Below are positions 26,972 through 50,811 of a stretch of DNA of 64,000 bases, piece by piece; positions within the stretch are counted from its first letter, which is position 1, and every line of letters starts with the position of its first letter. The notes below the pieces were generated by a model. It ran no database searches, was not told the DNA's origin, and saw only the letters and a program-made list of their open reading frames with translations. This DNA comes from an uncultured Planctomycetota bacterium (GTDB lineage: Bacteria; Planctomycetota; Planctomycetia; Pirellulales; Thermoguttaceae): positions 222,896 through 286,895 of the forward strand of contig CAVTCJ010000003.1 of NCBI GenBank assembly GCA_963733145.1, read 5' to 3'. Made by a program: the position numbers and the translations under genes.

Positions 26972-26986
26972 AAGACTCCTCTCGTC

Positions 26987-30733: not shown

Positions 30734-30804
30734 ATAGGATCATGCCAAGAAACAAAGATGCGACGCAAAAAAACACCCCCCGTAACCGATTTTCCGAGAA
30801 AGCA

Positions 30805-30879: not shown

Positions 30880-30980
30880 ATTTTGGAAGCAAGATGCGGC
30901 AGGACCAACGGCGCGACTCGCCCCGTCCTCCTATGAGGCGGTCGGCGGTGCGCGTTCCGTGCATGGGTTCTGACCGAAAG

Positions 30981-31052
30981 CCGTGTCAACCTGTGGTTAG
31001 CTCAGTGGGTAGAGCACCAGACCAAGAATCTGGCTGTGACGGGTTCGACTCC
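30981..31052 (+). ncRNA. tRNA-like module 2 in the rtc operon leader (canonical D, anticodon-like and T arms; imperfect acceptor stem)
   Basis: GCTC-AGTGGGTA-GAGC D arm, CCAGA-CCAAGAA-TCTGG, ACGGG-TTCGACT-CCCGT T arm; acceptor CTGTGGT vs ACCAACG has 2 mismatches; position 33 is C. Confidence 0.4.
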
Positions 31053-31448
31053 CGTACCAACGTCGCGGGCCGTAAAACAGCCCGCTACCAAGAAAGCCCG
31101 AGGGAGGCGGGCCAACGTGTGATCGGCCATCGGACTGCTGGCATGTCGGCGTTCGACATGCGGCGTCGATGGCAGCATTTCCGAGCGCCATGCAGTGCGT
31201 GGATACCGATTTTGTCAATCCTCGGCCTACCGGCGATGGATGTCCTGCGAGTTGCGATGGGGTTTGCCCCGTTGGCGACAAGCGTCACAAAACCGCCGTG
31301 TCGGCCGAAGGTCCTGCAGAAACTCAAACGGCACTCCGCACTCGTCCGTGTGATCACCGTTGGTTCCGCCGCCCAACGGCGTTGCCAAACAACAATCCAG
31401 TACACAATTGGAATGACGCAATAACGACCGCAGAAAGGAAGGTGCAGA

Positions 31449-32552: not shown

Positions 32553-32560
32553 TCGCTGTC

Positions 32561-32604
32561 GGCCCGGAAGACCGGGCGTTGTCCCGGTCTTCCGGTTGCG
32601 GGCC
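32561..32604 (+). other. perfect 13-bp stem-loop between the SPFH gene and rtcB
   Basis: ccggaagaccggg-cgttgt-cccggtcttccgg; no U-tract, so more likely a processing/stability element than a terminator. Confidence 0.4.
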
Positions 32605-32646
32605 AAAACCTAGCAACTATGCTCCGAATGCCTGCTACAAAAGTCG

Positions 32647-34185
32647 GTGCGAATTGATACAATGGTCATAAAAGAAAGCCAAAGACTCAGCATGACTACT
32701 GAAAACAATCTCACACTGATCCCCACTGGCGAAGCCACGGCCATGCTGCCCGTAGGCAACGGCAGGCCGATCACCGTCATCGGCACTAAAGCGATTCACG
32801 CGACGTTTGACGAGCAAACACTTCGGCAGGCCGTCCATTCGCGGCTCGCGCCGGGGGTGACCGACGTGGTACTGAATCCTGACGCCCACGTGGGCTATGG
32901 GGCGCCGATCGGCTGCGTGATGGTCTCGCCGTCGCACATCTATCCCGGTCCGGTCGGGGTGGACATCAAGTGCTCGATGAGCCTGCTGCAATTGAACGTG
33001 CCGGCCGACGCCATCGCTGAGCGACCGATCCGCCGGGCTTTGATCAACGCCATCTGCGATCGCACTCCCACGGGGCCGGGCATGGGACAACGAAACGTGC
33101 CGAAGTCCCGCCGGGTTGATGCCACTCTTGGCCATCAGGTTGTGATTGAAGGTGCCTCGCCTGCTGTGTGCAACGCGCTGGGTATTCCGACCGACTGGGC
33201 CGCGCGGTGCGAAGATGCCTTCCACACCGGACACGACGAAACGCAAGACGCCCTGGCTGATCGTATCGATCACCTGTTGGCCGTCGGCGCCTTCCCGAAG
33301 TTTGCCGAGAAGATCACGCAACTCGGCTCCTACGGCGGCGGGAACCATTTTGGCGAGTGCGAGGTGGTTCAAGTGGCCGACAACCAGCGGGCACGCGAAG
33401 TCGCCAGCGTTTTCGGTCTGATCGATGGCGACGTGGCGTTCCTCTCGCACTGCGGCTCGCGGGGACTCGGCTACAATCTGGCCTCCGGCCAATTCCGCAC
33501 GCTGCAACAGAAGTTCGAGACTTGGAGCATCCCGCTACCCGGCGGAGATCGGGAGTTGGTCTACGCGCCGCTGGGTACGCCCGAGGCGGACGATTACTTG
33601 GACGACATGGCCTTGGGCGGCAACTTCGCCACGGTCAACCATTTGCTGATCAACGCCCTGGTGCTGGAAGCCTTTCAGGAGGTCATCCCCGGCGTCACGG
33701 GGCAGTTGGTCTACTTCATCAGCCACAATATCGCGCGGAAAGAGGTGGTGGACAATCGGCTGGCGTGGGTCCATCGCAAGGGCGCAACCCGGGCGTTTCC
33801 CGCCGGCCATCACGCCCTGAAGAACACGCCGTTTGCCGAAACCGGCCATCCAATCCTCTTGCCTGGCAATCCCCAGGCAGGATCGGTCGTCATGGTGGCC
33901 GACGAAGGTGCGGTGAAAAGCTGCTATAGCGTCAACCACGGCGCCGGCCGCCAAATGGGTCGCAAAGCGGCAATTCGCGAACTCGATCAGAAGGCGATCG
34001 ACAACCAGTTCGACGCGAACGATATTTTGACAAATTGCCGGCAGTATCCCAAGGACGAGGCCCCGGTGGCCTACAAGGATTTCGACGAAGTCGTTCGGTC
34101 AGTCACAGGCGCCGGATTGGCAAGCGAGGTGGCAAGGCTTCGGGCAAAGTTCGTCGTCAAAGACGCAAGCAAGGCCGACGATTGA
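32647..34185 (+). CDS. rtcB: RNA-splicing ligase RtcB
   Basis: Full-length RtcB with metal-binding histidines and the NHGAGR motif region (SVNHGAGRQMGRKAA). Alternative start at MTTENNL (32692). Confidence 0.95.
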   Translation: MRIDTMVIKESQRLSMTTENNLTLIPTGEATAMLPVGNGRPITVIGTKAIHATFDEQTLRQAVHSRLAPGVTDVVLNPDAHVGYGAPIGCVMVSPSHIYPGPVGVDIKCSMSLLQLNVPADAIAERPIRRALINAICDRTPTGPGMGQRNVPKSRRVDATLGHQVVIEGASPAVCNALGIPTDWAARCEDAFHTGHDETQDALADRIDHLLAVGAFPKFAEKITQLGSYGGGNHFGECEVVQVADNQRAREVASVFGLIDGDVAFLSHCGSRGLGYNLASGQFRTLQQKFETWSIPLPGGDRELVYAPLGTPEADDYLDDMALGGNFATVNHLLINALVLEAFQEVIPGVTGQLVYFISHNIARKEVVDNRLAWVHRKGATRAFPAGHHALKNTPFAETGHPILLPGNPQAGSVVMVADEGAVKSCYSVNHGAGRQMGRKAAIRELDQKAIDNQFDANDILTNCRQYPKDEAPVAYKDFDEVVRSVTGAGLASEVARLRAKFVVKDASKADD

Positions 34186-34212
34186 CCTATTTGTCCACAT
34201 ATCGTTTTCAAC

Positions 34213-35256
34213 ATGAAAGAATCTATCCTCACAATCGACGGCTCCCACGGTGAAGGCGGCGGGCAGGTCCTCCGTTCCTCGCTAGCGATGTCCCTGGTCA
34301 CCGGCCGGCCGTTTGTCATCGAGAACATCCGTGCCGGACGTAAGAAGCCGGGACTCATGCGACAGCACCTCACGGCCGTGAATGCTGCCACGGAGGTCAG
34401 CCATGCCGAGGTCGAAGGGGCCGTGATCGGATCGTCGCGGTTGGAGTTTCGGCCGGGCAAGGTCTCCTCCGGCAACTACACGTTCAGTGTGGGCACGGCG
34501 GGCAGCACGACCCTAGTACTACAAACGGTGTTGCCGGCACTGCTCCTGGCCGAGAGCGAGTCGAATCTGATCCTTGAAGGCGGCACTCACAATCCGTTCG
34601 CGCCGCCGTTGGATTTCCTGATGAAGAGCTATCTTCCCTTGGTGAACCGAATGGGGCCAACGGTTGAGACCCAACTGATCCGACCGGGGTTCTATCCGGC
34701 CGGCGGCGGGCAGTTCACTGTCCGCATTCGGCCAACCCAGCAACTTGGGCGGCTGGAACTCACGGAGCGGGGTGAAATCCGGGCCCGCCGTGTCCGGGCG
34801 GTAGTGGCCAATCTGCCCCGCCAGATTGCCGAGCGGGAATATCGCGCCATTGCTCAGAAGACTGGCTGGGATGAAGGATGTTTTTCGGTCGAAGAAGTGC
34901 GCGAATCGCGCGGGCCGGGCAACATCGTTCTCATCGAGTTGGAGTCCGAGCGCATTACCGAAGTATTCACCGGCTTTGGTCAGATCGGCGTGCGGGCCGA
35001 AGCTGTAGCCATGCGTGTGCTCGACGAAGCTCGCGCTTATCTGGCTGCCGGAGTACCGGCTGGCAAGTACCTCGCCGATCAACTGCTGCTTCCTTTGGGG
35101 ATCGGTGCCCATCTAGGCACTGGCGGTGGCGCCTTTCGGACGATGGCACTGTCGCTCCATGCCACGACGCACATCGAGATTCTCCACCGATTCCTCGAAC
35201 TCGATGCCAAAGTCGAGCAAAACGGCCGAGATGACTTTGTTGTCCAGATCGGCTGA
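34213..35256 (+). CDS. rtcA: RNA 3'-terminal phosphate cyclase
   Basis: MKESILTIDGSHGEGGGQVLRSSLAMSLVTGRPFVIENIRAGRKKPGL is the canonical RtcA N-terminus with the adenylated His region; 347 aa. Confidence 0.95.
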   Translation: MKESILTIDGSHGEGGGQVLRSSLAMSLVTGRPFVIENIRAGRKKPGLMRQHLTAVNAATEVSHAEVEGAVIGSSRLEFRPGKVSSGNYTFSVGTAGSTTLVLQTVLPALLLAESESNLILEGGTHNPFAPPLDFLMKSYLPLVNRMGPTVETQLIRPGFYPAGGGQFTVRIRPTQQLGRLELTERGEIRARRVRAVVANLPRQIAEREYRAIAQKTGWDEGCFSVEEVRESRGPGNIVLIELESERITEVFTGFGQIGVRAEAVAMRVLDEARAYLAAGVPAGKYLADQLLLPLGIGAHLGTGGGAFRTMALSLHATTHIEILHRFLELDAKVEQNGRDDFVVQIG

Positions 35257-35689
35257 ATCAGCGCCTCTGACGCAGCGAACGAGTTGAATCCGGGCGTTGC
35301 AAGCGAGACGCCAACGTGGCAATCATCAGGCATGGGCTATTCCGAATCGGTCTCATCCAGGAATTCGCGAAACAACTCGAATTCTGCCTGAGCCTCGATC
35401 CCAAGCTGATCGAGATCGTCGAAATCGATCTCCGGCATGAGGCCCCCGTGCTCGACATACCGTCCCAGAACCTTCCTGGAGGAAACAACCCACCGCGATT
35501 CTTTTGCCTCTTCAGGCAACTCAACCAGATCCGGATCGACAATCGCTGCAACCCCAGACACGGTCATCGAGATTTCTGGAATATGGCAGCTTGGCATCGG
35601 GTCGTTCTCGTAGCCTCCTTGCTCGTGGAGTTGCCGCGGGTCAAACTCGAAGATCACCGCTGTCTTTCCTGCACGAGCAAGCCTGATCC

Positions 35690-35900
35690 AGTTATGGTGG
35701 ATTCGCTCCTCCGGCGCGCGGCACTGGTAATACCCATTATCACCGTTGGGGCTCTTGTGCTCGCCTTGGCGCAAAACTTTGGAGCGTGGGTGGTTGGTTC
35801 GCAGTGGCAAGATGCAATAGCATTTGTTGTTTTGCTGGCGTTTCTGGTTTTCCGACCAGAAGGCGTGATGGGAAAGAAGGTCAGGGAAGCGACTGTGTGA
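35690..35900 (+). pseudogene. 3' fragment of a branched-chain amino-acid ABC permease (LivH/LivM-like C-terminus)
   Basis: IITVGALVLALAQNFGAWVVGSQWQDAIAFVVLLAFLVFRPEGVMGKK matches the LivH C-terminal helix and RPxG motif. Upstream part of the ORF is non-protein-like. Confidence 0.5.
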
Positions 35901-35927
35901 GCAACGATCACTATGGAATACCTTCTA

Positions 35928-36066
35928 CCTAGCGCGGCTTAGCCGCAACCAATTGTGTCTGGTCTTGGGTCTTAGGTCTTGGGTCTTCGTGCCAAGACCT
36001 AAGACCCAAGACCCAAGACCGTCAAAGATTGAGGACGATTTCTCAATCCCAAAAACTAATGGCATA
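35928..36066. repeat. truncated copy (one TIR + hairpin + internal segment) of the 22224-22525 MITE, inverted orientation
   Basis: cctagcgcggcttagccgcaaccaattgtg, followed by the GGTCTTGGGTCTTAGG hairpin and attgaggacgatttctcaat; matches 22375-22521 as reverse complement. Confidence 0.7.
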
Positions 36067-36502
36067 TCCTGATTCTGATCGGCATCCACACTATCTTGGC
36101 GGTAATCTGTCCGGGGGAGAACAGCAGATGCTCGCTTTCGCCCGCGCCCTGGTCGCAAAGCCCAAATTGCTCATGTTGGACGAGCCTTCCCTTGGCCTCT
36201 CCCCTAATCTGGTGCACAGCGTTTTCGATAAGATCGTAGAGAAAAGAGACAACCCTTCCCGATCAATCTGCGTATGTTCTCTAATATTGCCCTTTTCGTC
36301 CACCCCAATTTGTGCCATATTCACCCACGGCGGTATAAACCAGGATACCGGGATAGGCGTTCTTATCGTGGAACAGAAGGTTCGTGAAGTTCTCAGGGTC
36401 TGCAAGCGAGTGTACTCATTGAAGCTGGGAAAGCTGGCCTTCGACGGTACGCCAGAAGAGCTGCAAGACGACAAAGCGAAACTGAAGGAGTTGTTCTTGT
36501 GA
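36065..36502 (+). pseudogene. 3' fragment of a LivF-like branched-chain amino-acid ABC ATPase with internal corruption
   Basis: LSGGEQQMLAFARALVAKPKLLMLDEPSLGLSP (signature + Walker B), then ~40 aa unrelated, then GVLIVEQKVREVL...LGKLAFDGTPEELQDDKAKLKELFL (LivF C-terminus). Walker A absent. Confidence 0.55.
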
Positions 36503-36957: not shown

Positions 36958-37761
36958 TCAGGCCGCCCGCTTGAGCTTGATGATTGGCAAATGCCGGCGG
37001 CCCTTGTGGAAGCTGACCTCCAACGTCAGCTTGGCACCAGGTCTGCCGCGAACAAGTGCCCAGGGTTTGGCACAAGGCGAGCCCCGCGGCCACCGTGGGC
37101 GCGTTTCGTAGCGTGGCTTGCGGTGGGCGGGATGACTGCCGAAGTAAACTTCATTGGGTGTCTTGCCGCCAAGCCATTCGTGCGGTCGGTGTTGGTTGTA
37201 CCACTCGACTATCGCCGAAAGCTCCTGTTGGAACCTTTCTCGGCGATAGGGAATCAACAACAAACAGCCGAGTAGGGTTTTCAGCGTGAGGATGAAGCGT
37301 TCGACCACGGCGATTGAACCATGTTTGCCGATCGCGCCGAAACGCGGTTTCAGTCCTCGGGGGACACGAACTGATTATGAGACAACAGGTAATCCGGTGA
37401 TTGCTTTAACCAGCCAGTACGACGCCGGCAGCCGATACGCCACGATCGAGAGTTCGGCCCAATGTCATAGTTTGGTGCTGGCTGAGAACCCAAGCGGCTT
37501 CATGCTCGCCGAATCCTTCCTGACGTAGCGTTCGTCCGAGCAGGTCGAGGAAAAAGGGGACATTACGGCATAGTCCGCCTTCTTTACGGCGATGCCAAGA
37601 CACACAAACAGAGTCCGCTCGTTGATGAAGAGAATGCACTTGCGGCGTTTTACGGTGAAGATGTTTCCGTACCAGTCCCCGACCGCCGACGGTGCAACGT
37701 CGTCCATTGACGGATCATCAATGCCGGCAAGTAACCTTGACGTGCAACGAATGACTGACAT
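36958..37761 (-). pseudogene. IS3/IS481-family transposase (integrase-core rve domain) remnant in at least two frames
   Basis: WYGNIFTVKRRKCILFINERTLFVCLGIAV (DDE region) in ORF 37465-37761; ERFILTLKTLL...LSAIVEWYNQHRPHEWLGGKTPNEVY (rve C-terminus) in ORF 36958-37308. Confidence 0.6.
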
Positions 37762-37771
37762 AATCGCCGCC

Positions 37772-38191
37772 TCACACCAGGGTGAACGGGCCTCCGTCGC
37801 CGATGAGTTTCAGACATTCATCAACCGTCAGGTCGGCAAAAATGGTATGCCATTTCTCCGTATGCCGGAAATACGCAAGATTGAATTTCCGCTCGCCGGC
37901 ATACTCCAGCCGAGCGAAGCGGACCTCGAAAGTTGGCGCGGTTCTGTTCGGACCAGGGCTTGCCCAGGTGGAACCGAAGTAGAAGAAGCTCCCGTGCCAC
38001 TTCGTCCAGATTTCGATGGGATAGTTGAAATCGGTATCCGCCGGCGGCGCGGTGATGTACCGAGGCATCAACACCCTTTCCACCAGATCGTTGCCCTTGG
38101 TACGCAATTCTTGTTTGAGCGAATCTGGAATCGTGGGCTTATGTTGCCGATCGGGAGCATAACCCCAAACATAGCCGGTCTTTCTTGCCAT
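37772..38191 (-). CDS. hypothetical protein
   Basis: Start at MARKTGYVWGYAPD; Trp/aromatic-rich; no recognised domain; immediately downstream of the HD gene. Confidence 0.4.
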   Translation of the reverse strand: MARKTGYVWGYAPDRQHKPTIPDSLKQELRTKGNDLVERVLMPRYITAPPADTDFNYPIEIWTKWHGSFFYFGSTWASPGPNRTAPTFEVRFARLEYAGERKFNLAYFRHTEKWHTIFADLTVDECLKLIGDGGPFTLV

Positions 38192-38216
38192 TGCCAAACC
38201 CTCCTCCGACCAAAGT

Positions 38217-38756
38217 TTATCTGTGGATTTTGTCTGGAATGTCGATTCCCCAATCTTGCTTGACCAATTCGGGCACGACCTGGAAACAAGCACGACCATC
38301 CGCCCATTTGAGGATTTCCGGCCGTTTGGCTGCTTCCGTACAAAGCCGTTGTGTATCGGGGCAGATGCCGACCCGCCCCAAGTCCAACCGATCTGAATCC
38401 CAACAGGTCTGCACTGTTACGTCCTGTGCGATTCCGCCATCGGTATGGCTGGCACATGCCTCGTAAAGCAAGTCTAAATCCGCGTTCGACATGGAGAACC
38501 ACTTGCCGCGAAGCTCCACGGCCAGTTTGGCTGCTCGCCTGCCATGCTCGTCATCAATGCCCTCGTTCACTCGTCGAGCATCATGCAAAACGGCGAACAG
38601 TCGCACAACCTCAACGTTTGCGCCGGTTAGTTCAGCGAGCCGATGCCCATTTTCCAGCACCCTTGCCCAGTGGGAAACGCCATGCGTTCCACTGAACGGG
38701 AGAACGTACTGTTCGAGAACTGAGTGAACGATGGGTTTCAGGTCCAGCATTTCCAT
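38217..38756 (-). CDS. HD-domain metal-dependent phosphohydrolase
   Basis: GVSHWARV...FAVLHDARR...CWDSDRLD give the H..HD..D HD signature; directly follows pnkp. Confidence 0.75.
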   Translation of the reverse strand: MEMLDLKPIVHSVLEQYVLPFSGTHGVSHWARVLENGHRLAELTGANVEVVRLFAVLHDARRVNEGIDDEHGRRAAKLAVELRGKWFSMSNADLDLLYEACASHTDGGIAQDVTVQTCWDSDRLDLGRVGICPDTQRLCTEAAKRPEILKWADGRACFQVVPELVKQDWGIDIPDKIHR

Positions 38757-38776
38757 ATCGACATAAGGTAGCCGTT

Positions 38777-41418
38777 TTAGAGCCTCGGATCAACCGGCTC
38801 GCTCTCCAAGGCCAGTACGCCGAAAACGCATTCGTGAACGCGGCGGAGCGGCTCTCGCCGCACGAAGCGTTCGAGGCTTTCGATGCCGAGGGCGAATTCT
38901 CGGAGGGCCAGGGACCGCTTTGTGGCCAAGCCCCGCTTCCGCAGCCGGGAAAGGTTTTCGGGGAAAGTGTATTCAGGGCCGTAGATGATCCGCAGATATT
39001 CGCGCCCGCGGCACTTCACGGCCGGCTGGACGAGACCTTTCGAGCCGGAGGCGATGAACTGATAGGGCTTGACCACCATGCCCTCGCCGCCGCGGCCGGT
39101 CAGTTCCAGCCACCACTCGACGCCCTGCCGCTGGCTCTCGGGATCGGCCAGATCGACGATCTTGAAAGGAGTTGCCATCAACAGCGCCGGATCGTGACGG
39201 CAGATGCCGGCGAGCGTTTCCATGTGCCAGACGTGATTCTGGTCGGTATGGACCGTTCCCTCGGTGGCCATCAGGTGGAACGGGGCCACTTTCAGATCGT
39301 CCAAAGACTTGACCGGCCAGCAATACTGGCGATACGCGCGGACGAATTGGCCGATCGCCTCGCCGCGGCTTTCGTATTGATCCAGCAGGCCATCTATGTC
39401 CGATGCGTAGGACGAGGCATTTGCAGTTGGCGAAGATGGCTCTTGACCGGCCAGTCCGCTCGGCCGCTTGCCGGAGCACAGAGACGGCCTTGGGCAGCGA
39501 GGCTCGGCCCGAAGCCCCCACGGCGGCATACTGCGAGCGAAGCAACTCCTGGGCCTTGACCGACCACGGCATCAATTCGCAATCGAGGCAGGCCCAATCG
39601 GTGTTGAACTGCGTCCAGAAATCGCCGGCGTCCATCGCGGCTCGAATCCGGGCGAGCAACCGTTCCTCCAACTCGCCGTCGGAGAAAAAGCGCCGGCCGG
39701 TGCGAGTAGAGACGATGCCCGTCTCCCCGCCGACTATCCCGAATCGCTGCTGAGCCGCCTCCGCACTCCGGCAGACGATGATGACGGCCCGCGACCCCAT
39801 GTGCTTCTCTTCGCACACGACCTGCGACACACCGCGCGAACGATAGTACGAAAACGCCTCGGTCGGGTATTCGAGAAAGCCGTCCTGGTCGCTCGTTTCG
39901 CACGGCGACATCGTGGGCGGCAGATAGATGAGCCATTTTGGATTGGCGGCGAAGCGGCTCATTATCTCCAAGGCCGCCACGGCGTTTTCCTCGCGGATCG
40001 TCACGCTGGAGCGCAGCCGGGTCGTGATGATCCGCTTGCCGAGCACGTCCTCGGCGTCCAGCAGATCGTCGTGAATCTGCTGGCTCGTCAACGCCGACGC
40101 CTCCGGCTCCTCGGGCAGGAACGGCCGAACCGGCTCGCAGTATGTCCGAGCGGCGGGCACCGACACGAACTCCCGCTCCGGCCAGCGCAGTGCGGTCAGC
40201 TTACCGCCGAACACGCAGCCGGTGTCGATGTTCGTTGTGCGGTTGAGCCATTCCGGCTCGGGAACCGGCGTGTGGCCGTAGACCACTGTCGCCCGGCCGC
40301 GATACTCGGCAGCCCAATTGCAGCGGACGGGCAGGCCGAACTCGTCGGTCTCGCCCGTCGTTTCGCCGTAAAGGGCGAACTCCCGCACCTTGCCCGAGCC
40401 GCGCCCCTGCATCTCCTCTTTCATGCCGGCATGGGCGACCACCAGCTTCCCGTCGTCCAGTACATAATGGCTGACCAGTTCGTCAAGGAAATCGGCCGCT
40501 TCTCCGGCGAGCTTGCGGCGAACGTCCTCGGGCAGGGCCTCGATCTCGGCGAGCGATTCGGCCAGCCCGTGCTTCACCTGGACGTTTTTGCCCCGCAATG
40601 CCCGCATGAACTTCACATCATGGTTGCCGGGCACGCACAGGGCACTACCATCGGTCGACCATGTTGCGCACAACCGAGCGTGTCGAGAATCCGCGGCCCT
40701 CGATCCGACCAAGTCGCCGAGGAACACGGCTTTCCGGCCTTCTGGATGCCGTATAAACCGGTTGCCCCAGACCGGATCGTCGCCATCCCGCTAGACCGGC
40801 ACGATAGCCGAGGTTTCTGGAACAGCGCTTCCAGTTCATCGCAACAGCCATGCACGTCGCCGATGATGTCGAACGGCCCGTGGTCGTCGCGTTTGTCGTT
40901 CCAGAGCGGAACACGCTCAATCGTGACCGCCTCGACTTCCTCGGGCGAGTCGAAGATGAAAACGTGCGAGAAGCCTTCGCGTTTCATTCCTCGGATGGAC
41001 CGCCGCAACTGCGACCGCTGCTGCCGGATCACATGCGGCCCGAAACTGCGGTCTTCCCGCCCCCGGTTCCGCTGCTCGCAAACCTTCTCGGGCAGGTTGA
41101 AGACGATGCGCCACCGGCAGGCAATGCAGTTCCCGAGCAAGCTGCACCAGCGGCTTACGAGCCTCCGGCTGCACGTTCGTGGCGTCCGCAACTGTCAGAT
41201 GCCCCAACGCCAACCGTTTCCGGGCGATGAAATGCAGCAACTCGAACGCCTCGTTGGTCACGGTTTGGTCGTTCTCGTCGTTGCTGAGCATTCCCCGGCA
41301 GGCGTCGGACGATAGTATCTCGGTCGGCAGAAAGTGTCTTGCGGGCAAACGTGCTCTTGCCCGAGCCGCTGGGGCCGATGAGGACGACGAGGGAAAGGCG
41401 AGGAATACTAATGTGCAT
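38777..41418 (-). CDS. pnkp: polynucleotide kinase-phosphatase-ligase Pnkp (bacterial RNA repair), at least 4 apparent frameshifts
   Basis: Kinase P-loop MHISIPRLSLVVLIGPSGSGKSTFARK; phosphatase DIIGDVHGC and GNHD (calcineurin-like); C-terminal ligase/adenylyltransferase region (KVAPFHLMATEGTV..GGEGMVVKPYQF). Pieces lie in ORFs 41155-41418, 40917-41348, 40613-41191, 38973-40727, 38777-39529. Confidence 0.8.
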
Positions 41419-41425
41419 TGAAATA

Positions 41426-42249
41426 CTACCGATGTTGTGAATCCGATGTCTGCATTACCGCACGTTTTCCAGTCTTATCCTCACGAGCAAATCGTTCAAT
41501 GCCGCCGTGCTGGTGGGCGTTTCGGGCAAATGACTCGCCTCGGACGCCGCTTCGAGTTCGCGGCAGAGCCGTTCGTATTCCTGTTCGTGGAATGAGAGAT
41601 CGGCCTGTGCCAATCGACCCTTCTCCGGCCCGGCTTTCTTGCGCTCGATGAACTCGGCAATGTAGGGAAGTCTCGGCCTCTTCGTTCAGACGAACCAAGT
41701 TCGCCTCGACCTCGCCGGTTCGCATCAGATGAATGCCGGTCAGCAGCACGCGGTAAACGTAAAGCAGCGGCTTGACATGCGGCGGGTCTTCCTTCTGAAA
41801 GAGCTTCCATTGCGTGGCCGCGAACCCGAGGTAATGATGGGCGTGATGCCGGGTCAGGCATGCTTCGGCAATCGCCTTCAGTTCCTCGTGATACGGCGTC
41901 GTGTGGACCACCAGCGGCGAAAACACCTGCTCCATCACGTAGCCGTTCTTCCGCAAGCATCAGTCCGAAGAACTTCTTCACATCGTGCGTCACGAGGTCG
42001 ATCTCCACGCCGTCGCGGATGCCCGATTTCGGTGATCGTTTCGCGGCCCGGTTTCAGTCCAACGACTTCCCGCAGCGGCAACACGTGGACGCCCCGCAGA
42101 TCGTAGTCGGAGTCGGGCGAGGGAAACCCATAGAGATGCGCCCCGCTGATCGTGGCGAACACCAACGGGTATGGATGTTCTTCGACCTGCTTGACTAGCC
42201 GAGGATCGCGGGAAACGGCCATTGCTGCGTTTGTGCTGTCGTGCGTCAT
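41426..42249 (-). CDS. PF10127/COG3541-type predicted nucleotidyltransferase, at least 2 apparent frameshifts
   Basis: N-terminal LVFATISGAHLYGFPSPDSDYDLRGVHVLP (GS..YG...SD.D..GV); C-terminal HHYLGFAATQWKLF...KPLLYVYRVLLTGIHLMRTGEVE. Confidence 0.65.
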
Positions 42250-43195
42250 GGTCCAAAGCCCTCCACGGCCTGCCGCCGGGCCTTCACCAGAAACCGATTC
42301 GCCCGCTCGTAATCCGGCCGCTCCGGCAGCGATGTCGTCTCAAACGCCTTGTTGAACTCCTCGTGCAGGGCGAGCCGCCAGCGGTTCACGTCCTCCCACG
42401 GCGTCTCGCCCCGCTTGATTGCCAGCAATGCCTCTCGATGCTCCTCGACCCGGACGGGCACGAATCCTTCACGCAAAACCGTGACGCCGGAAAGCAGCAG
42501 GCGGATCAGGTGCATGACGTGCTTCCATTTGATGTCGCCCTGATTGCGAAGGTGCGCCTGCATCCGCTTGAATTGCGACATGACGTAGCCGTTATATGTC
42601 TGATACACCATGCGTGAGAGAAACGAGGCCCGCATGGCGAGCAGTTCGTCGGCCAGCGGCGTGGTGGTCTCGACCAGCGGCGAGAACAGACATTCCAGCA
42701 CGTTGGGATTCGCCTTGAGCGCCAACACCAAGAACTTCTGGATTTCCCAATAGACCTCTTGGGTAGCGTCGTTTTCGAGTTGTTCGGGCACGCCGTAGAG
42801 CGACCAGTGCAGATCGGCATGGCGGCAGATAGATGCCCCTTCGATCCGTGTCCGAATCGGAATCGTCGAGTCCGTATGCCCGCGAACCGATCACGCATCG
42901 GTAGATGACCCGCTCGTACAGATTGCACTGCTTGGCGGCGATTTCCTCGTGGCCGATCGCGCCTTCCTTGTAGTCGGGCCAGCGCCATGACATCGCGCCG
43001 GGCCAGCGTTGCTTCAACGTCGTCGGGAAAGCGGACCCGGTAGCCCGGCTCGTCGTCCGCCTGTGATCGCACGACAATGCCGACCGCCCCGCGCGGATGC
43101 AAAACGTGCCCCTGGTCCACAACGTCCCTGAGCGCGACCACCTGCGTGCCCGGCGAATAGATCAGGTTCGGATGGAAGTGGACTCTTTTGGTCAC
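42246..43195 (-). CDS. second PF10127/COG3541-type nucleotidyltransferase paralogue with ~70-aa N-terminal extension, at least 2 apparent frameshifts
   Basis: NLYERVIYRCVIGSRAYGLDDSDSDTDRRGIYLPP in one frame; C-terminal NPNVLECLFSPLVE..MVYQTYNGYVMSQF..IKWKHVMHLIRLLLSGVTVLREG in ORF 42246-42791. Confidence 0.65.
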
Positions 43196-43211
43196 GACAG
43201 ACTACTCCTGG

Positions 43212-43609
43212 TTACGTCGAAGCAACACTGTTTGGCGGATTACCGCGCCGGATCACATTGTCTGGGTCGTGCCATTCCATGCCACATGAGAGGCACTGTT
43301 TGGCCTTGGTTGTCCGCAAAGAACACCCGCAATATGGGCAAGGGCAAGTTTTCTCTGGGCCATCGGGATGTGCCACCCATATTTTTGCCCATGAAATGTT
43401 ACATCCCGTGATACGAATTAGCTCCTTGGCAGCAAAAGAGGGCGTTGTTTGGCGAGTTGCCGCAATGATGTCTCTTGTGACGGGGTCAAATCGGCAAAAG
43501 CTGGAATGTGCGTATGGCACTTCTCGCACAATGGCCCACGAGTCGGCCACGCATCGTCGGGCAACGATTCGAGTTCACGGTTCGTGTAGGAATCCATTGT
43601 TATGCACAT
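43212..43609 (-). CDS. hypothetical zinc-ribbon protein (two Cys clusters), one apparent frameshift
   Basis: CEKCHTHIP in the upstream frame; CPCPYCGCSL...CLSCG in the downstream frame. Confidence 0.4.
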
Positions 43610-43647
43610 CCCGATCTATGAAGATTGATTCTGCTGTCCATTATCCA

Positions 43648-45426
43648 TCACGAGTGAAAAGCCGCCTTCAATCCTTCCTGTGATGCCCAGCGGCTGAGTA
43701 CGTCTTTCTCTTTTTCCGTTGCAAGCCGATTACTCTTCCCGCGAACTTGACGGATTTCCCTCCGTTGGTTGTTGACCTCAACAGTCACAAGCGGCTCAAC
43801 CCCTTCTCCCGTTTCAACCTCCATCGACCAAATTGAACACACGTTCTTATAACAGGAATTGGCATAACTCGCGACACAATGGCGCATTCGACGACCTTCC
43901 GCGATCAGTTCCTGACTACTGAGAAGCTCTCGAATCCGCCACACCCTCATGTTTTGCGACTCCTTTGTCCCTTCAATGAACTTGTAGTCGTGGAACGGTG
44001 ATTTTCGCCATTGTAGGCGTCCGCCGGCGGTTTCACGCCCTAGTTGTCGATGCCATTGGTTGACGGCACGCAAGAGTGAAGCGACGGTTCGCCCGTGCAT
44101 GGAAAAGTTGGGCTGTTCCGGCCCAAGTTCTTGTGCCACGCCGCGCTCGATGAAAGCGACGCGGGGTTCATACCGTTGATTCCAGATATAATCGACAATC
44201 GGCTGGACGTGGACGAGATCAAGCATGGGATTCCGCACGAAGAACCGAATGACGCTCAGCCAAAACTCGTTGTCCCGAAAGTCCTGAACGAGTCGTGTCT
44301 CGCGTAACGCATCGGCCAAGCGACGATCACCGCCGAGGGCGATGACCTGCCCCCATCGAAACGCCGCCTCGATGGAATAGGTTGCGGGCGACTCCGAAAA
44401 ATGGTGGGCCATCTTCTTCGTAAACGGAATTGGCAATCCTTCGGCCGTTTGGATGTTTTTGCCGGCCCCAATATGCTTGAACCACGATTGTTGGATGGCA
44501 TTTCCTTGCAGCCAAGCCTTGTCCATGAAAAGAGGCACATCGTAAATCGCCCACAAGTGACGCGATAGCGAAGAAAACTGCCGCTCGGGGTTGTGCGACT
44601 TCGGCGTCCATTGTTCGAGCGGATTGATCCACTCGGCGGCGTCCTTGCTGAGTTCGATGACTCCTCGAACGTGGGCTGCGGACTTCAGCAGTTTTGATTT
44701 TGCATCGACATAACGTAGCATCGCCAAAAGAGCATCTCGATCGACGGCACGCTCAAAGCCCGCATGGATTTCAGAGGCTATGGTCGTATCCAATTCGTCC
44801 TTCGTCAGTTCACCGCGATGGATCAGCGATAGGAGCGAACGATTCTTTCGTGTCTTTTTGGCGTCTGGCAATCGTGAGGCAGCCTGTCGGCTCTTTTCCT
44901 TCTTCTCCGCTTTGGTGGGGACATTTGGATGAACGAGGTGCCTCAACTTGAGGTTTTCGGCCATCTCCCGAAAATTGCCGGCAGCCAAGCCTTCTGCCTC
45001 GCATCGCAACTGGTGAAATAGCTGAATCAAGGGATGTGCCCCATCCAGTTTCAAGGTGCGAAGCCGTCGTTTGCCAAGCCGCCGGTCAAGCATCCCGATT
45101 GTCCGAATGAGAACGTCCTTTGATTGTAGGATGTCATCTATCGACATCGTGAGATAACGTATCATCGCATGGCGAAGACTACCCTTGGCGCACAGAGACA
45201 CATAGTCGGCAAATGGTTTCGGCAAATCCGGTTGATCGACATAGTTTCGCAACATCCATTCATACCAGTGCGGCATGTTGACGATTTCTTGGCCATCAAC
45301 GGTAATCCAATTTCGGCCTTCTTCATCGTGCATTCCGTGATAGCCCGTCTCATGGAGCCGTACACGTCCTTTCACGCTGTCGGCGAACATATCCTCAACA
45401 CGTTTGCGCAATTGGCTCCACTGCAT
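43648..45426 (-). CDS. PcfJ-like domain protein (592 aa)
   Basis: C-terminal LIAEGRRMRHCVASYANSCYKNVCSIWSMEV matches the PcfJ-like E-G-x-x-M-x-H-C-V signature; N-terminal ~450 aa have no assignable domain. Confidence 0.65.
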   Translation of the reverse strand: MQWSQLRKRVEDMFADSVKGRVRLHETGYHGMHDEEGRNWITVDGQEIVNMPHWYEWMLRNYVDQPDLPKPFADYVSLCAKGSLRHAMIRYLTMSIDDILQSKDVLIRTIGMLDRRLGKRRLRTLKLDGAHPLIQLFHQLRCEAEGLAAGNFREMAENLKLRHLVHPNVPTKAEKKEKSRQAASRLPDAKKTRKNRSLLSLIHRGELTKDELDTTIASEIHAGFERAVDRDALLAMLRYVDAKSKLLKSAAHVRGVIELSKDAAEWINPLEQWTPKSHNPERQFSSLSRHLWAIYDVPLFMDKAWLQGNAIQQSWFKHIGAGKNIQTAEGLPIPFTKKMAHHFSESPATYSIEAAFRWGQVIALGGDRRLADALRETRLVQDFRDNEFWLSVIRFFVRNPMLDLVHVQPIVDYIWNQRYEPRVAFIERGVAQELGPEQPNFSMHGRTVASLLRAVNQWHRQLGRETAGGRLQWRKSPFHDYKFIEGTKESQNMRVWRIRELLSSQELIAEGRRMRHCVASYANSCYKNVCSIWSMEVETGEGVEPLVTVEVNNQRREIRQVRGKSNRLATEKEKDVLSRWASQEGLKAAFHS

Positions 45427-45435
45427 AATTGTCGC

Positions 45436-46861
45436 TCAAGTGTCGAGTGTGACGTTTGCTCCAAGTTTGAACACTCCCATCTGCGTCGGCGGTCCCCACT
45501 CGGCGTGTTCCGGCCCAACTGGCCGAAACTCGACGGAATAACCGAATCGGCTCGGCCACGCCCGTCGCCCAAGCCCGGAACTCCTCCCGAGTCCACTCGA
45601 AACGGTGGTCTTCGTGCCGAAACGCACCGGCGGCAAGGTTGGGCCAGCTTGCATTGTACTCGCGGTTGGGCGTGGTGAGCACGATCGTCGTTGGACGGGC
45701 AAACTCGAACACGACCCGCTCGAAGGCGGCCAGACGCGGCGGATCGAGATGCTCGATTACTTCGACGACGGCCGCCGCATCGAAGCCGGCGAGACGCTTG
45801 TCACGATACATCAGCGAACCGTGCATCAACCGGATGCGCTCGCGTTGGCGCGGCGGCAGGTCGTCCATTCGCAATCGGGACGCGGCGATTTCCAACGGGC
45901 GGATCGACACGTCCATGCCCACGATCTCCTCGAACTGCTTCTCCTTGAGCAATTCCCGCAGCAGCCGGCCCTCGCCGCAGCCGAGGTCGAGCACCCGTTT
46001 GGCGCCGGTCGCCTTCAACACGGCTGCAACCGAACTGAGCCGTTCTTCGTTGAGGCTGATTGGCTTTTCCAGCGATTCTTCGCGGCTCACCGCGCGGGCC
46101 TCGGCAAGAAAATCCTCCGCCGGTTGATCCTCCTGCTCGACAAGCCGCTCGATCGCCTGCCGGGCAAGGCTGGGCCGATGCTTCAAGTAGCGGCGGACAA
46201 TCGCCTCTCGCTTCGGGTGCGACGCCAGCCAGCCCTCGCCCTGTTTCAACAGCTTCTCCAACTCCTCGAAACCCACGTAATAATGCTTGAAATTGTCGAA
46301 AACTGGCATCAAAACGTACAAATGCGTGAGCAATTCGCTGAGCGTCGTGGTTTTCGACAGTGTTACCGAGTAGTAGGGACTTGGCCCCCAGTCGGGAAAC
46401 GTCTCGTCGAGCGGATAGCGGACGGCCTCGATCTCATATCCCAGCGGATCGAAGACCTCGTGCAAGAAGTCCTCTCCGCCCCGGCAGGGAAGCACTTCGA
46501 TCGCGGCGACCAGTGGAATCGGCGTCCCGGCCAACTCCGGCCGCTCCTTCGAGCGCCCATTCAGCGCCGGGCCGAGCACCTGTGCAATCGCCACGCTCAT
46601 AAACGACGACGCCACGTAAGGCCGGTCGTTGACGTACTGGGCCAAGACCGTGTGCGTCAAGCCGCTCTTTCCCCGCACCATCGCCACCGGGTCCACGTCC
46701 AGGAGCAGGGCGGCGGTGCAGCGGTCCTCCGTCGCCTCGGTATAGAACACGTGGGCGCTGCCGAAACTGAGCGGAAAACTCTGGCACCGCGCCGGGTTCT
46801 TGTGCAGCAGATAGCCCAGGTCGGTCGCCGGCCGGTGCGTGGATGTAATTGTCAGCAACAT
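45436..46861 (-). CDS. hen1: bacterial Hen1 RNA 3'-terminal 2'-O-methyltransferase, one apparent frameshift near the C-terminus
   Basis: MLLTITSTHRPATDLGYLLHKNP is the characteristic bacterial Hen1 N-terminus; SAM-MTase motifs VLDLGCGEGRLL, AAVVEVIEHLD; C-terminal YSVEFRPVGPEHAEWGPPTQMGVF in the adjacent frame. Confidence 0.85.
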
Positions 46862-47228
46862 TATGATTCAAGCTGAAAGCGTGTGGCGAAAAGGTCCATT
46901 TTGGCAAGGATACGGACTACCGGCAAGAGGGGGCAAGTCTCCCGTCTCGAAAGCCGGAAAAGATGCGACTCGCTGGAACGTAGCCCATCACCGTCGTCAC
47001 GGCAAATCGGCGTCTGACTTGCGGCCGGAGTACGGGTGAAATGATTGCGTTCCCGGCTTTGCGGTGCTGCGAATCATCTTGTCACCGATATGGATTGCTA
47101 CCTGGCATGATCGGCCGCCGGCCAAAACTGTGTCGGCTTGCTAAACCAAAACGAAAAAAGGATAGGCGACCTGGTGCAATGATGCGGTCGACGTCCAATA
47201 GCGGTTTCACTTCGGAACTCCTTGCTCT

Positions 47229-48080
47229 CTAGGACGCCTCCCACAGTGGTTCGGAGTAACTTTCGCACCACTGAACGTAATGCTTCCAGCAAACTTGCGG
47301 CGTATTGCCGAGCAACTTGGCCAAGGTCTCGATGGTGGCCGCCCTGCCCGTCCAGTAGCCTTGCAATGTTCGTTTTGCGTAGGTGTGCCGGCAAGAATAC
47401 ATGCAGGCGTCGGCGTCAAACTTTAGGCTTTCTCTTTTCTCAACGCGACGCCGCAAGCGAACGAAAGCTGTTGTCAGGTTGCTCGGCGTCCAAGGCCCCC
47501 CATTACGGTTTCGGAATATCGGCCCCGCCGGGAACTCCTCCATCTGCTGTCGCGTTATGGCAATAATCTCGGGGGCAGTTACCCGGACGATCCGGTACTT
47601 TTGTGTGGTTTTTGTTTTTTTGGGCGTTACCCTCCCCTCCATACGGTTTCCCATATCCGCGATCTGATCCTTCGTCAGTGTGGTAAATTCGATTCCATAC
47701 CGAAGGCCCGTCCGAATGCCCAACCGTGACACGAGGCCCCACATCTGGGCCTCATGGATGACGAGGGCGGGAAACAGCGACAATTACCCTGTAATCAGAA
47801 AGGACTCGTGCTCGATTTCGCTGTCCCGATAGCTAATCACGCCGGCAGAATCGTCCTTGATCGGCGTCACACGCCCCAGCAGAAAATCCGGCAGACTGGC
47901 GAAGTAGTATCCGCCGGCCGTCTCGCCGGAGGAGAGCGGGCCACTAACTAACGGCCGTCCAAAAAAACGACAACGTCGCTTCGCGCTCTCGCCATAATCT
48001 TTCCCGTTCTGGTACAATGGAAGGTAAAAAGGGCAAAGAGGTGCAACGCGGGGATTTTCTGGAACAGGGAGGAACGCCAA
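47229..48080 (-). pseudogene. tyrosine recombinase/phage-type integrase with an in-frame TAA stop
   Basis: Catalytic C-terminal domain with CRHTYAKRTLQG...LLGNT...KHY (R..H..R..Y) in ORF 47229-47783; the N-terminal part in ORF 47784-48080 shares the frame, separated by TAA (..ESFLITG*LSLFP..). Confidence 0.7.
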
Positions 48081-48082
48081 TC

Positions 48083-49816
48083 ATGTCAAGCCATCGCGGA
48101 CGCGGAAATCACTTGATCATGGTTGCCCTCGCGCTGCTGGGTGCCGGCTGTTGGGTGTTGCCGGTGGCCGCGGCTGACGGCCCGCCCCAACACGCTTTGC
48201 TCCGGGCACAAATTACGGCGGGCGAATTTGCCCCGGCCATCGCTCTGGCCCGACGGGCAGAAAGCCCTGGGCAGCGCGACGCCTGGCTGGCGGAAATCGC
48301 CCACGCCCAGGCCCAAGCGGGCATGCGCGACGCCTCATTGAGGTCCGCCGCCGAGATCGGCGACGACCGCCTCCGCGCGCAGGCGCTCTCCGGCGCCGCC
48401 CCGCGCCACGGGGCGGAAAGGGCGGCGCCGCCCAGGCCGACTTCGACTCGCTCATCGACCTGATTACTTCCACCGTCCGGCCCTCGACTTGGGACGTCGT
48501 CGGCGGTCCCGGCTCGATTTCCCCCTTTCCCACCGGCGTTTTCATCGATGCCCGGGGCGTGTTGAAACCGCTCTTGAAAGAGGAGCCGGCCGGAGACCTG
48601 GAGCGGCTGCGCCGCCGGCGGACCACGTCCCGGCGGAGGCGACGCCCGCCACGCTTCGCCCCTCCGCAAGGTCTCGCTCACGCGGCTGGAAAAACAGGTC
48701 CAGTTGCTGCTCGCCGCCGGGCGGCACCCCGGCGAGGCCATGCAAGTCCTGGCCGGCCTGCAACGCATCCAATACGTGTTCGTCTATCCGGAATCGGGCG
48801 ACCTCGTGCTGGCCGGACCGGCCGGCGATTGGCGGCCCGGCCCCGAGAACATCATCGTCGGCGCCGACACCGGACTGCCGGTTGTGCGGCTGGACGACCT
48901 GGTGGTCGTTTTGCGCCAATGACGGGCGGCCCCGACGCCGCCTTCGGCTGCATGATCAATCCTCGGCCGGAAGCGCTCGCCGCAGTGAAGGCCTTCGTGA
49001 ATGACTCGAACAAGCGGCCCATCCGACCCGACGAGCGGAAGCGCGTGGCTCGAGCAGCTCCGCTCCCGGCTGGGCAAGCAAGACATCGAAGTCTACGGGC
49101 TCGATGCCCGCACGCGGGCGGCGCGGGTCATGGTCGAGGCCGACTACCGCATGAAACTCGTCGGCATGGGCCTGGAGGAGGGCGTGCCGGGCATGCAAAG
49201 CTATCTGGCCTCGATCACCATTCCGCTCAGGCAAGCCGGCCCCGCCGATGGGCGTGCTCCGCTGGTGGTTCACGCTCAATTACGACTCCGTCGTCGCCTC
49301 GGCCGACCGCCGGGCTTTCGCCCTTCGCGGCCAGGGCGTGAAAGTGGAGAGCGAAAACGAGCGGCTTTCCGCCGAGGGCCGGCGGATCCACACCGGCCAG
49401 TCCGAAGAGCTGAACCGCAAGTTCGCCAGCGGCTTCACCGAGCATTTCGAGGCCCTCTGCCGGAAATATCCCATCTACGCCGAGTTGCGGAACCTCTGCG
49501 ACCTGGCTCTGGTCTGCGCCCTGGTGCGGGAAGAGGGCCTGGCCGAAAAGGCCGGCTGGCACATGACCTGCTTCGCCAGACCCGCCGGCGTTATCCTGTC
49601 CAGTTGGGCGAAACGCCCAGGGAGGTCGATACGGTGATCAACTACCGCATCGTCAACCACATTCACATCGTGGCGGGCGTCAGCGGCGGCGTGCGGGTGC
49701 ATCCCGCCGCGCTGGTGCGGCGCGAGGCCATCGAAATCGACCGCGCCGGCTACCTGAGAAAACAGCGTTCGGCAGCGGCAAAGAACCATGCCGGGGATGA
49801 CTGGTGGTGGGATTGA
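48083..49816 (+). CDS. secreted DUF1598-like Planctomycete-type protein, at least 4-5 apparent frameshifts
   Basis: Signal peptide MSSHRGRGNHLIMVALALLGAGCWVLPVAAA; conserved blocks spread over ORFs 48017-48463, 48489-49004, 48704-48922, 49001-49816, 49248-49637. Confidence 0.5.
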
Positions 49817-50811
49817 TGATGAGGAGGACATCTATAGGTTCGCTTTGGCTGCTCGCCTCTTTTCTCGGCACAAGATGCTCGTCGCCGGCCGATACCCCGT
49901 CGGAGCAGGACAATGCCATCGTCGCCCTGGTCGGCGGCGACCCGGTTCGGGCGGCCGAAGTGGACCGCCTGTTGGCCAAGTCGGCCGGCTTTAGGCCGCT
50001 CAACGCCGAGGCGCAAACGATCCTCCGGGCACAGGCGCTCGAGGAGTTGATCGACCGCCGGTTGGTGCTGGCCTACGCGCGGCGGACCGGCTTGGCCCCT
50101 ACGGCGGCGGAAATCGACTCCCAGTTGGCCGGATTGAAGGCGAAGCTCAAACAGCAGAACCGTTCGCTCGAAGATTTTCTCAAGGCCCGGTCGGTCAGCG
50201 AAGCCGATCTGCGGCGACAGCTTGCCTGGAACGTGGACTGGGAGAAATGCCTGACCCGCTACGACACGCCGGCGCGACGGGAGGCGTACTTTCAGGCCCA
50301 TTGCCGGGAGTTGGACGGCAGCCGGGTTTCCGTGAGCCAGATCTTGCTCCGGCCGTCGGCCGGCGGCGGGGTTCAGTCGTCCGAAGCGCTGATCGAGCAG
50401 GCCGAAGGCATCCGCGGCCGGATTCTCTCCGGCGAAATCTCCTTTGCCGAAGCCGCCAAGAAATACTCGGCCGCGCCAAGCCGCAAGCAGGGTGGCCGTC
50501 TGGGCGAGATCGCTCGCCACGGCGCCATGAGCGAGTCCTTTTCGCGGGCGGCCTTCGCCCTGGAGTTGGGCGAGGTGAGCCGGCCCGTGCTCTCTCCCTT
50601 CGGCGTTCACCTCATCCGCTGCGACGCGGTCCTGTCCGGTGGCAAACGGCTCTCCGACGTCCAAGAGGAGGTGGCGGAGGGCTTGGCCCGTGAGCTATTG
50701 GAAAAGTTAGCCGGGTTGGAACGGCGCGATACCCAGGTCGAGTACCGCGGCCCGGCCCCGCATTTCCAGCCGGGGACGCGCAAGCTGATTTGGCCGCACA
50801 GCGGCGAATAG
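49804..50811 (+). CDS. SurA-like periplasmic chaperone / parvulin-type peptidyl-prolyl isomerase
   Basis: N-terminal SurA-like helical domain; parvulin domain (ISFAEAAKKYSAAPSRKQGGRLGEIARHGAMSESFSRAAFALELGEVSRPVLSPFGVHLI). Confidence 0.8.
   Translation: MVGLMMRRTSIGSLWLLASFLGTRCSSPADTPSEQDNAIVALVGGDPVRAAEVDRLLAKSAGFRPLNAEAQTILRAQALEELIDRRLVLAYARRTGLAPTAAEIDSQLAGLKAKLKQQNRSLEDFLKARSVSEADLRRQLAWNVDWEKCLTRYDTPARREAYFQAHCRELDGSRVSVSQILLRPSAGGGVQSSEALIEQAEGIRGRILSGEISFAEAAKKYSAAPSRKQGGRLGEIARHGAMSESFSRAAFALELGEVSRPVLSPFGVHLIRCDAVLSGGKRLSDVQEEVAEGLARELLEKLAGLERRDTQVEYRGPAPHFQPGTRKLIWPHSGE

Follow-up and report, generated by a model that had tools for sequence, protein, structure and literature searches.

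Bacterial RNA repair counters ribotoxins (for example colicins, anticodon nucleases and phage-defence RNases), and only its core enzymes have been characterised. We have analysed a 64,000-nucleotide stretch of DNA (the window) from an uncultured Planctomycetota bacterium, contig CAVTCJ010000003.1, in which a block at positions 36958 to 48080, on the minus strand, carries the RNA-repair genes hen1 and pnkp, two genes of the RlaP nucleotidyltransferase family and a gene for a PcfJ-like protein. A previous reading, made from the letters alone (the sequence-only reading), had described the block as a decayed integrative island with an expanded Pnkp/Hen1 module. Profile searches, frame-corrected sequence and catalytic motifs agree on the identity of that module, and we reach a different view of its state, origin and novelty.

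Genes of the Pnkp/Hen1 operon

Genes were called from Pfam, NCBIfam and PHROG profile searches of the window's proteins and open reading frames (ORFs), which returned every gene that had been named in the block, with the same positions and strand. Read along the minus strand from 48080 to 36958, the first repair gene is hen1 (45439..46861 after correction). Its product matches the ligase-activating domain Hen1_L over profile positions 1-241 of 242 (Pfam, E = 2.5e-110, ORF 45395-46861) and also methyltransferase families, and thereby holds both the Pnkp-associating N-terminal domain and the C-terminal S-adenosylmethionine-dependent 2'-O-methyltransferase. Before correction, relatives match no more than 89-90% of the ORF, and correcting one insertion restores the C-terminal 40 residues. 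Two tandem genes, RlaP1 (42246..43195, with an N-terminal extension of about 70 amino acids) and RlaP2 (41464..42249), were identified by Pfam and tblastn, the family profile PF10127 matching four ORF fragments (41426-43122) with 43-110 bits against a cut-off of 23. The family is said to have been named by Burroughs and Aravind in 2016. Both corrected translations hold a Pol-beta carboxylate motif, IGSRAYG...DSDSDTD in RlaP1 and ISGAHLYG...DSDYD in RlaP2. RlaP2 ends about 48 nucleotides (nt) before pnkp, and RlaP and an RNA ligase also share an operon in 10 related loci.

The pnkp gene (38777..41418, about 878 codons) encodes the 5'-kinase and the 2',3'-phosphatase as well as the ligase. AAA_33, Metallophos and PNKP_ligase matched its ORF fragments (38777-41348) with E-values down to 3e-95, and the 878-amino-acid Pnkp of the related locus L087 matches the gene over its full length and colinearly (tblastn). 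The P-loop kinase, the central binuclear metallophosphoesterase and the C-terminal adenylyltransferase/ligase are all present, in a deposited sequence broken by eight insertions or deletions (indels) and one TAG codon. After frame correction all the expected motifs can be read: the P-loop GPSGSGKS, the three phosphoesterase motifs GDVHG, GDLVDRG and GNHD, and the ligase lysine motif EEKHMGS.

Four genes stand between hen1 and pnkp and extra genes follow pnkp, as the sequence-only reading had it. The two that precede the RlaP pair encode an intact SF0329+PcfJ protein of 592 amino acids (43648..45426; Pfam, NCBIfam) and a frame-split double zinc-ribbon protein, ZnR, of about 128 amino acids (43212..43597), recognised in three-frame translations. 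Downstream of pnkp come an intact small HD-domain protein of 179 amino acids (38217..38756; Pfam HD, E = 3.8e-5), an intact DUF3024 protein (37772..38191; Pfam, ORF 37772-38299) and a DUF6933 gene cut to its N-terminal part (37465..37761). All intergenic gaps from hen1 to DUF6933 are 51 nt or less, and this stretch therefore looks like one co-directional operon. A leader of 370 nt lies between a recombinase remnant and hen1. Similarity to all relatives starts about 75 nt before the hen1 start, at a promoter-like motif, TTGCCG-N17-CAAAAT, in a conserved segment (46862..46935, minus strand) seen in a five-locus alignment; the blastn similarity boundaries in L002, L084 and L087 fall at 46932-46935. 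We regard the motif as a putative promoter. A scan for sigma-70 promoters and terminators gave counts no different from shuffled controls, and a sigma-54 pattern had no match ahead of hen1 and matched across the window at chance frequency.

A Hen1-profile scan of metagenome contigs gave 80 related loci (60-69% identity), 73 of which had enough downstream sequence for their gene order to be classified. The gene hen1 is directly followed by pnkp in 51 of these; RlaP genes lie between the two in eight, another insert of 0.5-1.6 kb does so in seven, and a RlaP pair follows pnkp in two. No pnkp was within reach of hen1 in the remaining five, and pnkp was never upstream. Hen1 thus comes first in 68 of the 73 loci, and the two ORFs have been described as adjacent and co-oriented (PMC3675462). 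The sequence-only reading was therefore mistaken in giving pnkp-hen1 as the canonical order, and a hen1 gene placed upstream is the rule rather than an anomaly. In the window hen1 and pnkp are co-oriented and belong to the same tight array, but four genes apart.

Besides the eight metagenomic loci, RlaP genes separate hen1 from pnkp in L084, L085 and L087. L087 is a syntenic, fully intact copy, with an integrase and the order Hen1-PcfJ-RlaP-RlaP-X461-Pnkp-HD-DUF3024. L084 has Hen1-RlaP-RlaP-Pnkp-DUF6933, without PcfJ or HD; L085, on a 7.5-Mb planctomycete contig, has Hen1, a 190-amino-acid gene, RlaP, RlaP, a 143-amino-acid gene and Pnkp, among ordinary genes and no recombinases; L002 has Hen1, a 114-amino-acid gene, PcfJ, ZnR and RlaP. 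The hen1-RlaP-RlaP-pnkp array without PcfJ was found in L084, L085, L097, L124, L151 and L159, and no recombinase gene was seen among the flanking genes of L085, L124 and L159 on both sides or of L151 on its downstream side. The same order thus recurs (L085, L097, L124, L151, L159), with no recombinase gene in those flanks that were examined, which is largely the outcome that the sequence-only reading had itself named as refuting; the RlaP part of the supposedly undescribed architecture is a conserved operon of related planctomycete loci. None of the 80 related Hen1 loci has the PcfJ-like, HD or DUF3024 gene, and these additions are specific to the sub-lineage of the window, L002 and L087. What survives of the claim of a new gene combination is therefore the PcfJ and HD additions; the linkage of RlaP with a ligase had already been published.

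Two further variants were noted among these relatives. In L124 (7308-15735) hen1-RlaP-RlaP-pnkp is directly preceded upstream by genes for a Thg1-like 3'-5' polymerase and for an HD plus AAA_33 kinase protein, and the repair cluster has thus been expanded in a different way. Between RlaP2 and pnkp, L087 (15005-16390) and L085 (13996-14427) have inserted genes that both encode an HExxH motif (FVHEIAHHWD and YHEIGHHVD, respectively), the L087 protein also having TPR repeats, and they may be a metallopeptidase-like accessory that is absent from the window.

The PcfJ-like gene and the other additions

The PcfJ-like protein matches PF25753 (E = 4.7e-35, 121.6 bits, cut-off 27), PF14284 (E = 2.1e-14, 54 bits, cut-off 25) and the NCBIfam family SF0329_fam (121 bits, cut-off 60), and most of its 218 homologues share the same two-domain architecture. 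An AlphaFold2 (AF2) model reached a pLDDT (predicted local distance difference test) score of 85.8, and a structure search with this model gave no informative relative. The protein is 96.6% identical in amino acids to the L087 copy. Divergence from L087 at four-fold degenerate sites is 0.107 for PcfJ, rising to 0.21 for RlaP1, 0.32 for RlaP2, 0.39 for hen1 and 0.44 for pnkp, and the guanine plus cytosine (GC) content of the gene is 53% against 62-63% for its neighbours. Its low silent-site divergence and low GC mark the gene as a recently exchanged cassette, its recombination tract fading into RlaP1.

In no fewer than five phyla, homologues of this gene adjoin RtcB, RtcB2-PrfH or Hen1-Pnkp. 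PcfJ-RtcB2-PrfH was found in Syntrophorhabdus (L005), PcfJ-RtcB2 in Anaerolineales (L006), RtcB2-PrfH-PcfJ in a delta-proteobacterial metagenome-assembled genome (MAG; L082), PcfJ-PrfH-Band_7 in L003, PrfH-PcfJ adjoining an RNA ligase and a kinase-HD (PNK-HD) gene in L169, a gene with an RF-1 domain near PcfJ in L168, and Hen1-Pnkp-X537-PcfJ in Omnitrophota (L170). In eight gammaproteobacterial loci a shorter form of PcfJ adjoins RtcB, preceding it in seven, with RlaP nearby in two. A repair-type neighbour was present in about 12 of the 27 genome loci outside Poribacteria, several of the others being very short contigs. The number of independent juxtapositions looks well above chance, and inherited synteny is an unlikely cause of the linkage because the loci share neither gene order nor lineage. 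Judged by these gene neighbourhoods, the PcfJ-like protein probably belongs to RNA-repair and ribosome-rescue systems as a portable accessory, and it may serve as a substrate-recognition or scaffold factor.

A broader proposal is more tentative, and we would put its chances slightly below even: that SF0329+PcfJ is an unnamed mobile accessory shared by at least three systems (Pnkp-Hen1, RtcB and RtcB2-PrfH) with a promiscuity like that of RlaP, acting on damaged tRNA or ribosomes, and that the window holds it as a recently exchanged cassette in a Hen1-RlaP-RlaP-Pnkp operon that forms an RNA-repair hub with the Rtc system beside it. If true, a PcfJ-like partner of several unrelated ligase systems would mark an uncharacterised repair step, which might be to recognise damage, to handle ribosomes or tRNA, or to neutralise toxins. 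No paper linking PcfJ or SF0329 with RtcB or PrfH was found in a literature search by name, which did not cover Burroughs and Aravind (2016); an apparent match of "PcfJ" with RtcB proved to be the plasmid name pCFJ421. A search for a universal partner gene of PcfJ did not yield one, the neighbour clusters being mostly those of Poribacteria synteny (VapBC and an ABC transporter). In L009-L011, from Planctomycetaceae/Pirellulaceae MAGs, a gene for a 186-amino-acid HD-domain protein overlaps the PcfJ-like gene at its start; this protein has no similarity to the HD protein of the window by tblastn at E 1e-6.

The PcfJ, ZnR, HD and DUF3024 genes could instead be unrelated mobile or filler genes that landed in or beside the operon and have no role in repair. 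All four are absent from most related operons, and for PcfJ this explanation draws on the foreign GC of the gene, the very recent ancestry shared between loci and the frequent occurrence of the domain in phages and plasmids. The 79 genome loci of the family without Hen1, Pnkp or RlaP had pointed to an unrelated insertion of PcfJ, a view changed by its other repair-gene neighbours. Several observations weigh against a repair role: about 50 Poribacteria homologues of PcfJ and the L001 copy have no repair context, the plasmid and phage matches are single-domain only and have no repair neighbours, and the one HD homologue examined sits among methyltransferase genes and not repair genes. A chance insertion of PcfJ does not, however, readily explain its presence, in varying orders, beside ligase or rescue systems of three different kinds in Planctomycetota, Omnitrophota, Syntrophorhabdus, Anaerolineales, a delta-proteobacterial MAG and Gammaproteobacteria. 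For the four genes as a group we consider the filler explanation rather unlikely. No comparable repair evidence was found for HD and DUF3024, for which it stands, and both may be bystanders; we credit none of HD, DUF3024 and ZnR with a function in repair. The HD protein is 82% identical to its L087 orthologue (tblastn) and is one of a large uncharacterised family that is highly conserved (3576 matches), the DUF3024 protein is 79% identical to its L087 orthologue, and ZnR, whose L002 orthologue has weak Zn_Ribbon_1/DZR matches, was seen only in the window and L002.

Frame breaks and edges of the block

Aligned with L087, L084 and L085, and also with L002, the window shows 15 frameshifts of its own, made up of 13 single-base insertions and two deletions, of 2 nt and 1 nt. 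One lies in hen1 (an insertion near 45550 that shifts the final 40 or so codons), one in ZnR (the 1-nt deletion, near 43440), two in RlaP1 (insertions near 42973 and 42820), three in RlaP2 (insertions near 42032, 41957 and 41676) and eight in pnkp (seven insertions and the 2-nt deletion), and there is none in PcfJ, HD or DUF3024. Of the inserted bases, about half are not copies of an adjoining base, and most of the indels are outside homopolymers. Counted at codons on which the three relatives agree, substitutions on the window lineage number 6 non-synonymous and 62 synonymous; the same measure gives 30/157 for the intact L087 and 23/127 for L084. With a ratio of only 6/62, about nine neutral substitutions at most can have accompanied the 15 indels. 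Natural bacterial mutation yields far more point substitutions than indels, and most of the indels are deletions. The ratio in the window is the reverse of this spectrum, and assembly error is therefore likelier than pseudogenisation. Frame-split genes also occur elsewhere in the window (a MacB_PCD/FtsX permease, an amidohydrolase and DUF1598, at 3951-5262, 20278-21756, 48100-49830 and possibly 56780-57444), so that breaks are not confined to the repair operon. On this pattern of differences we judge it quite likely that the frame breaks are consensus errors of the assembly rather than gene decay, and the operon would then be decayed in appearance only, since its motifs are intact and L087 holds an intact syntenic copy.

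Some features of the breaks do not favour assembly error. Their density in hen1, RlaP and pnkp is about 15 times that in the remainder of the window, while PcfJ, HD, DUF3024 and the nearby rtcR, rtcB and rtcA have none, which uniform error would not predict; the in-frame TAG of pnkp (40791-40793, in the kinase-phosphatase linker) is a true substitution, and the integrase has an in-frame TAA. The clustering may have come from mis-recruited reads of co-occurring strains that share the operon at 80-90% identity. Error finds support, on the other hand, in L084 (11389-15805), an independent assembly whose contig name points to long reads: there hen1, RlaP and pnkp have six private single-base indels, five deletions and one insertion, and the flanking genes were called intact.

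Both ends of the block carry fragments of mobile genes, as the sequence-only reading had proposed. At one end a tyrosine-recombinase remnant (47229..48080, minus strand) has its catalytic domain at 47229-47783, an in-frame TAA at 47784-47786 and 98 unrecognisable codons before it. The supposed integrase with an in-frame TAA is thus borne out by its residues after the TAA, which match the PHROG integrases phrog_1 (E = 3.5e-11) and phrog_216 (E = 2.7e-10); it has no Pfam or NCBIfam match, its 98 preceding codons match nothing, and it has no tblastn match to the L087 integrase at E <= 1e-4. An intact site-specific recombinase was not found at the edge of the block, the ORF after the TAA having a catalytic domain and no recognisable core-binding domain. 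At the other end, the DUF6933 gene retains Pfam positions 1-64 of 157, its similarity to the full-length L084 gene ending at 37447, and is followed by a C-terminal transposase fragment of IS3/IS481 type (36958..37308, minus strand; the C-terminal 50 residues of rve_3 in Pfam and about the last 55 residues in NCBIfam). These three remnants, of the recombinase, the transposase and DUF6933, are genuine scars of rearrangement at the operon edges, and base-calling error cannot account for them.

An integrative island would be expected to leave further traces. A search of 35-49 kb for att-like direct repeats bracketing the block gave only chance-level matches of 14-17 nt; no tRNA target adjoins the block, the sole tRNA-like gene (ARAGORN) being at 30991 inside the rtc locus; and no block-wide compositional signature was found, GC varying as a mosaic of 53-63% within the block and being lower in the wider 24-48 kb region as well. 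We found no relative whose flanks are syntenic: those of the operon differ in L084, L085, L087, L124 and L159, and mobile genes lie upstream of hen1 in L084 (IS21 and a serine recombinase) and L087 (an integrase). Since mobile genes lie near the operon in several loci and its flanks differ everywhere, the operon lives in recombination-prone neighbourhoods; an integrative element is not demonstrated.

The alternative that the block is a horizontally acquired integrative island whose repair genes are truly decaying into pseudogenes takes the 15 indels and the two in-frame stops at face value, and finds support in the concentration of breaks in the four enzymatic genes beside intact neighbours, in the scars at the DUF6933 end, in the mobile genes upstream of hen1 in L084 and L087 and in the frame breaks of the L084 operon. 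We consider it distinctly unlikely, given a lineage ratio below that of intact relatives, a predominance of +1 insertions where natural decay favours deletions, intact catalytic motifs, frame-split genes of unrelated function in the window, the lack of att repeats and of a tRNA target, and the presence of the core operon in loci where the flanks examined hold no recombinase gene. In MAGs, single-base indels that occur in clusters can mimic gene decay, and setting indels against the synonymous and non-synonymous pattern relative to related sequences is a cheap way to separate error from decay.

Proposed repair pathway and comparison with known systems

Our preferred account, which we hold to be fairly likely, is that the block is an operon for the repair of ribotoxin-cut RNA, built from a planctomycete core, hen1-RlaP-RlaP-pnkp, with two gained cassettes, that PcfJ is an accessory, and that the frame breaks are assembly error. 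The first cassette would be the low-GC SF0329+PcfJ gene with the zinc-ribbon gene, inserted between hen1 and RlaP1, and the second would be HD plus DUF3024, downstream of pnkp. By analogy with their families, the enzymes of the window are predicted to heal, 2'-O-methylate and seal breaks with 2',3'-cyclic-phosphate and 5'-OH ends. Pnkp would strip the 2',3'-cyclic phosphate and phosphorylate the 5'-OH, as established for the family. The two RlaP enzymes, in a step that we infer here, would then restore one or two nucleotides on the 3'-OH if the toxin had excised bases. Finally, as is also established, Hen1 would 2'-O-methylate the 3' end and activate the Pnkp ligase, and the sealed break would resist re-cutting. 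RlaP from Pseudomonas, named for its linkage to RNA ligases, adds one or two nucleoside monophosphates to an RNA 3'-OH, and 5'-phosphate ligases can seal the product (bioRxiv 10.64898/2025.12.29.696909).

A complete Rtc RNA-repair locus (28963-35256) lies about 2 kb from the block, convergent with its operon, so that two RNA-repair systems whose ligases differ in chemistry share this genome segment. It comprises RtcR (28963-30576, minus strand) and, on the plus strand, a 74-nt tRNA-like gene (30991-31064; tRNA-Leu(aag) by ARAGORN, though it lacks a long variable arm; 46 bits for the tRNA family of Rfam), Band_7/SPFH (31449-32552), RtcB (32647-34185) and RtcA (34213-35256), the proteins being identified by Pfam. 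A sigma-54-like site, TGGCACGAGGGCTGC, at 30718 of the plus strand (pattern match with one mismatch, at a frequency expected by chance window-wide), is plausibly placed ahead of the rtc operon. Between the locus and the block, at 35316-36502, are remnants of an ABC-transporter ATPase broken by a near-perfect palindrome of about 60 nt made of GGTCTTGGGTCTTAGGTCTT repeats (35961-36020), which looks like the insertion of a small repeat element; the ATPase ORF also has a second foreign insert of about 30 codons. On the other side of the locus (24701-28745), two ADP-ribosylglycohydrolase genes, one of them fused to YdjM, and a NUDIX gene come after a DDE transposase fragment and possibly make up an ADP-ribose-processing cluster adjoining the rtc locus.

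An RtcR-regulated Rtc system with SPFH/Band-7 and a tRNA-like RNA was reportedly described by Burroughs and Aravind in 2016. The arrangement at 28963-35256 is exactly of this kind, but it is an operon separate from and convergent with the block and uses a 3'-phosphate ligase. The block itself resembles the Pnkp/Hen1 cassette of Clostridium thermocellum and Anabaena variabilis in its trifunctional Pnkp with all motifs, its two-domain Hen1 and its co-oriented genes with hen1 first; it differs in that PcfJ-like, zinc-ribbon and two RlaP genes keep the two apart and HD and DUF3024 follow. With the RtcB-RlaP-RtcA operons of Pseudomonas it shares PF10127 nucleotidyltransferases beside an RNA ligase, predicted to restore ribotoxin-removed nucleotides, whereas in the window there are two paralogues in tandem, each retains its carboxylate motif, and the ligase to which they are linked is the 5'-phosphate ligase Pnkp and not RtcB. 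Because the linkage of RlaP with ligases is published and the array recurs in related loci, this part of the architecture is a known theme and a conserved operon. The Pnkp1-Rnl-Hen1 complex (PMC4411300) is likewise an expanded multi-gene form of Hen1-dependent repair, but there one protein is the kinase-phosphatase and another the ligase, with hen1 unlinked, while the Pnkp of the window is the fused canonical enzyme. Homologues of the window's PcfJ lie directly beside RtcB2-PrfH (L005, L082), known as an operon for ribosome rescue and repair from E. coli ATCC 25922, or beside RtcB2 (L006), and the window operon itself has neither PrfH nor RtcB2; no mention of a PcfJ-like partner was found in the RtcB2-PrfH papers (PMC9304027, PMC9223846). 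The module is thus a known RNA-repair system that gained extra genes and not a new kind of system, and the most useful product of the analysis is its fresh element, the association of PcfJ-like genes with several repair systems across unrelated bacteria, which we offer as a lead.

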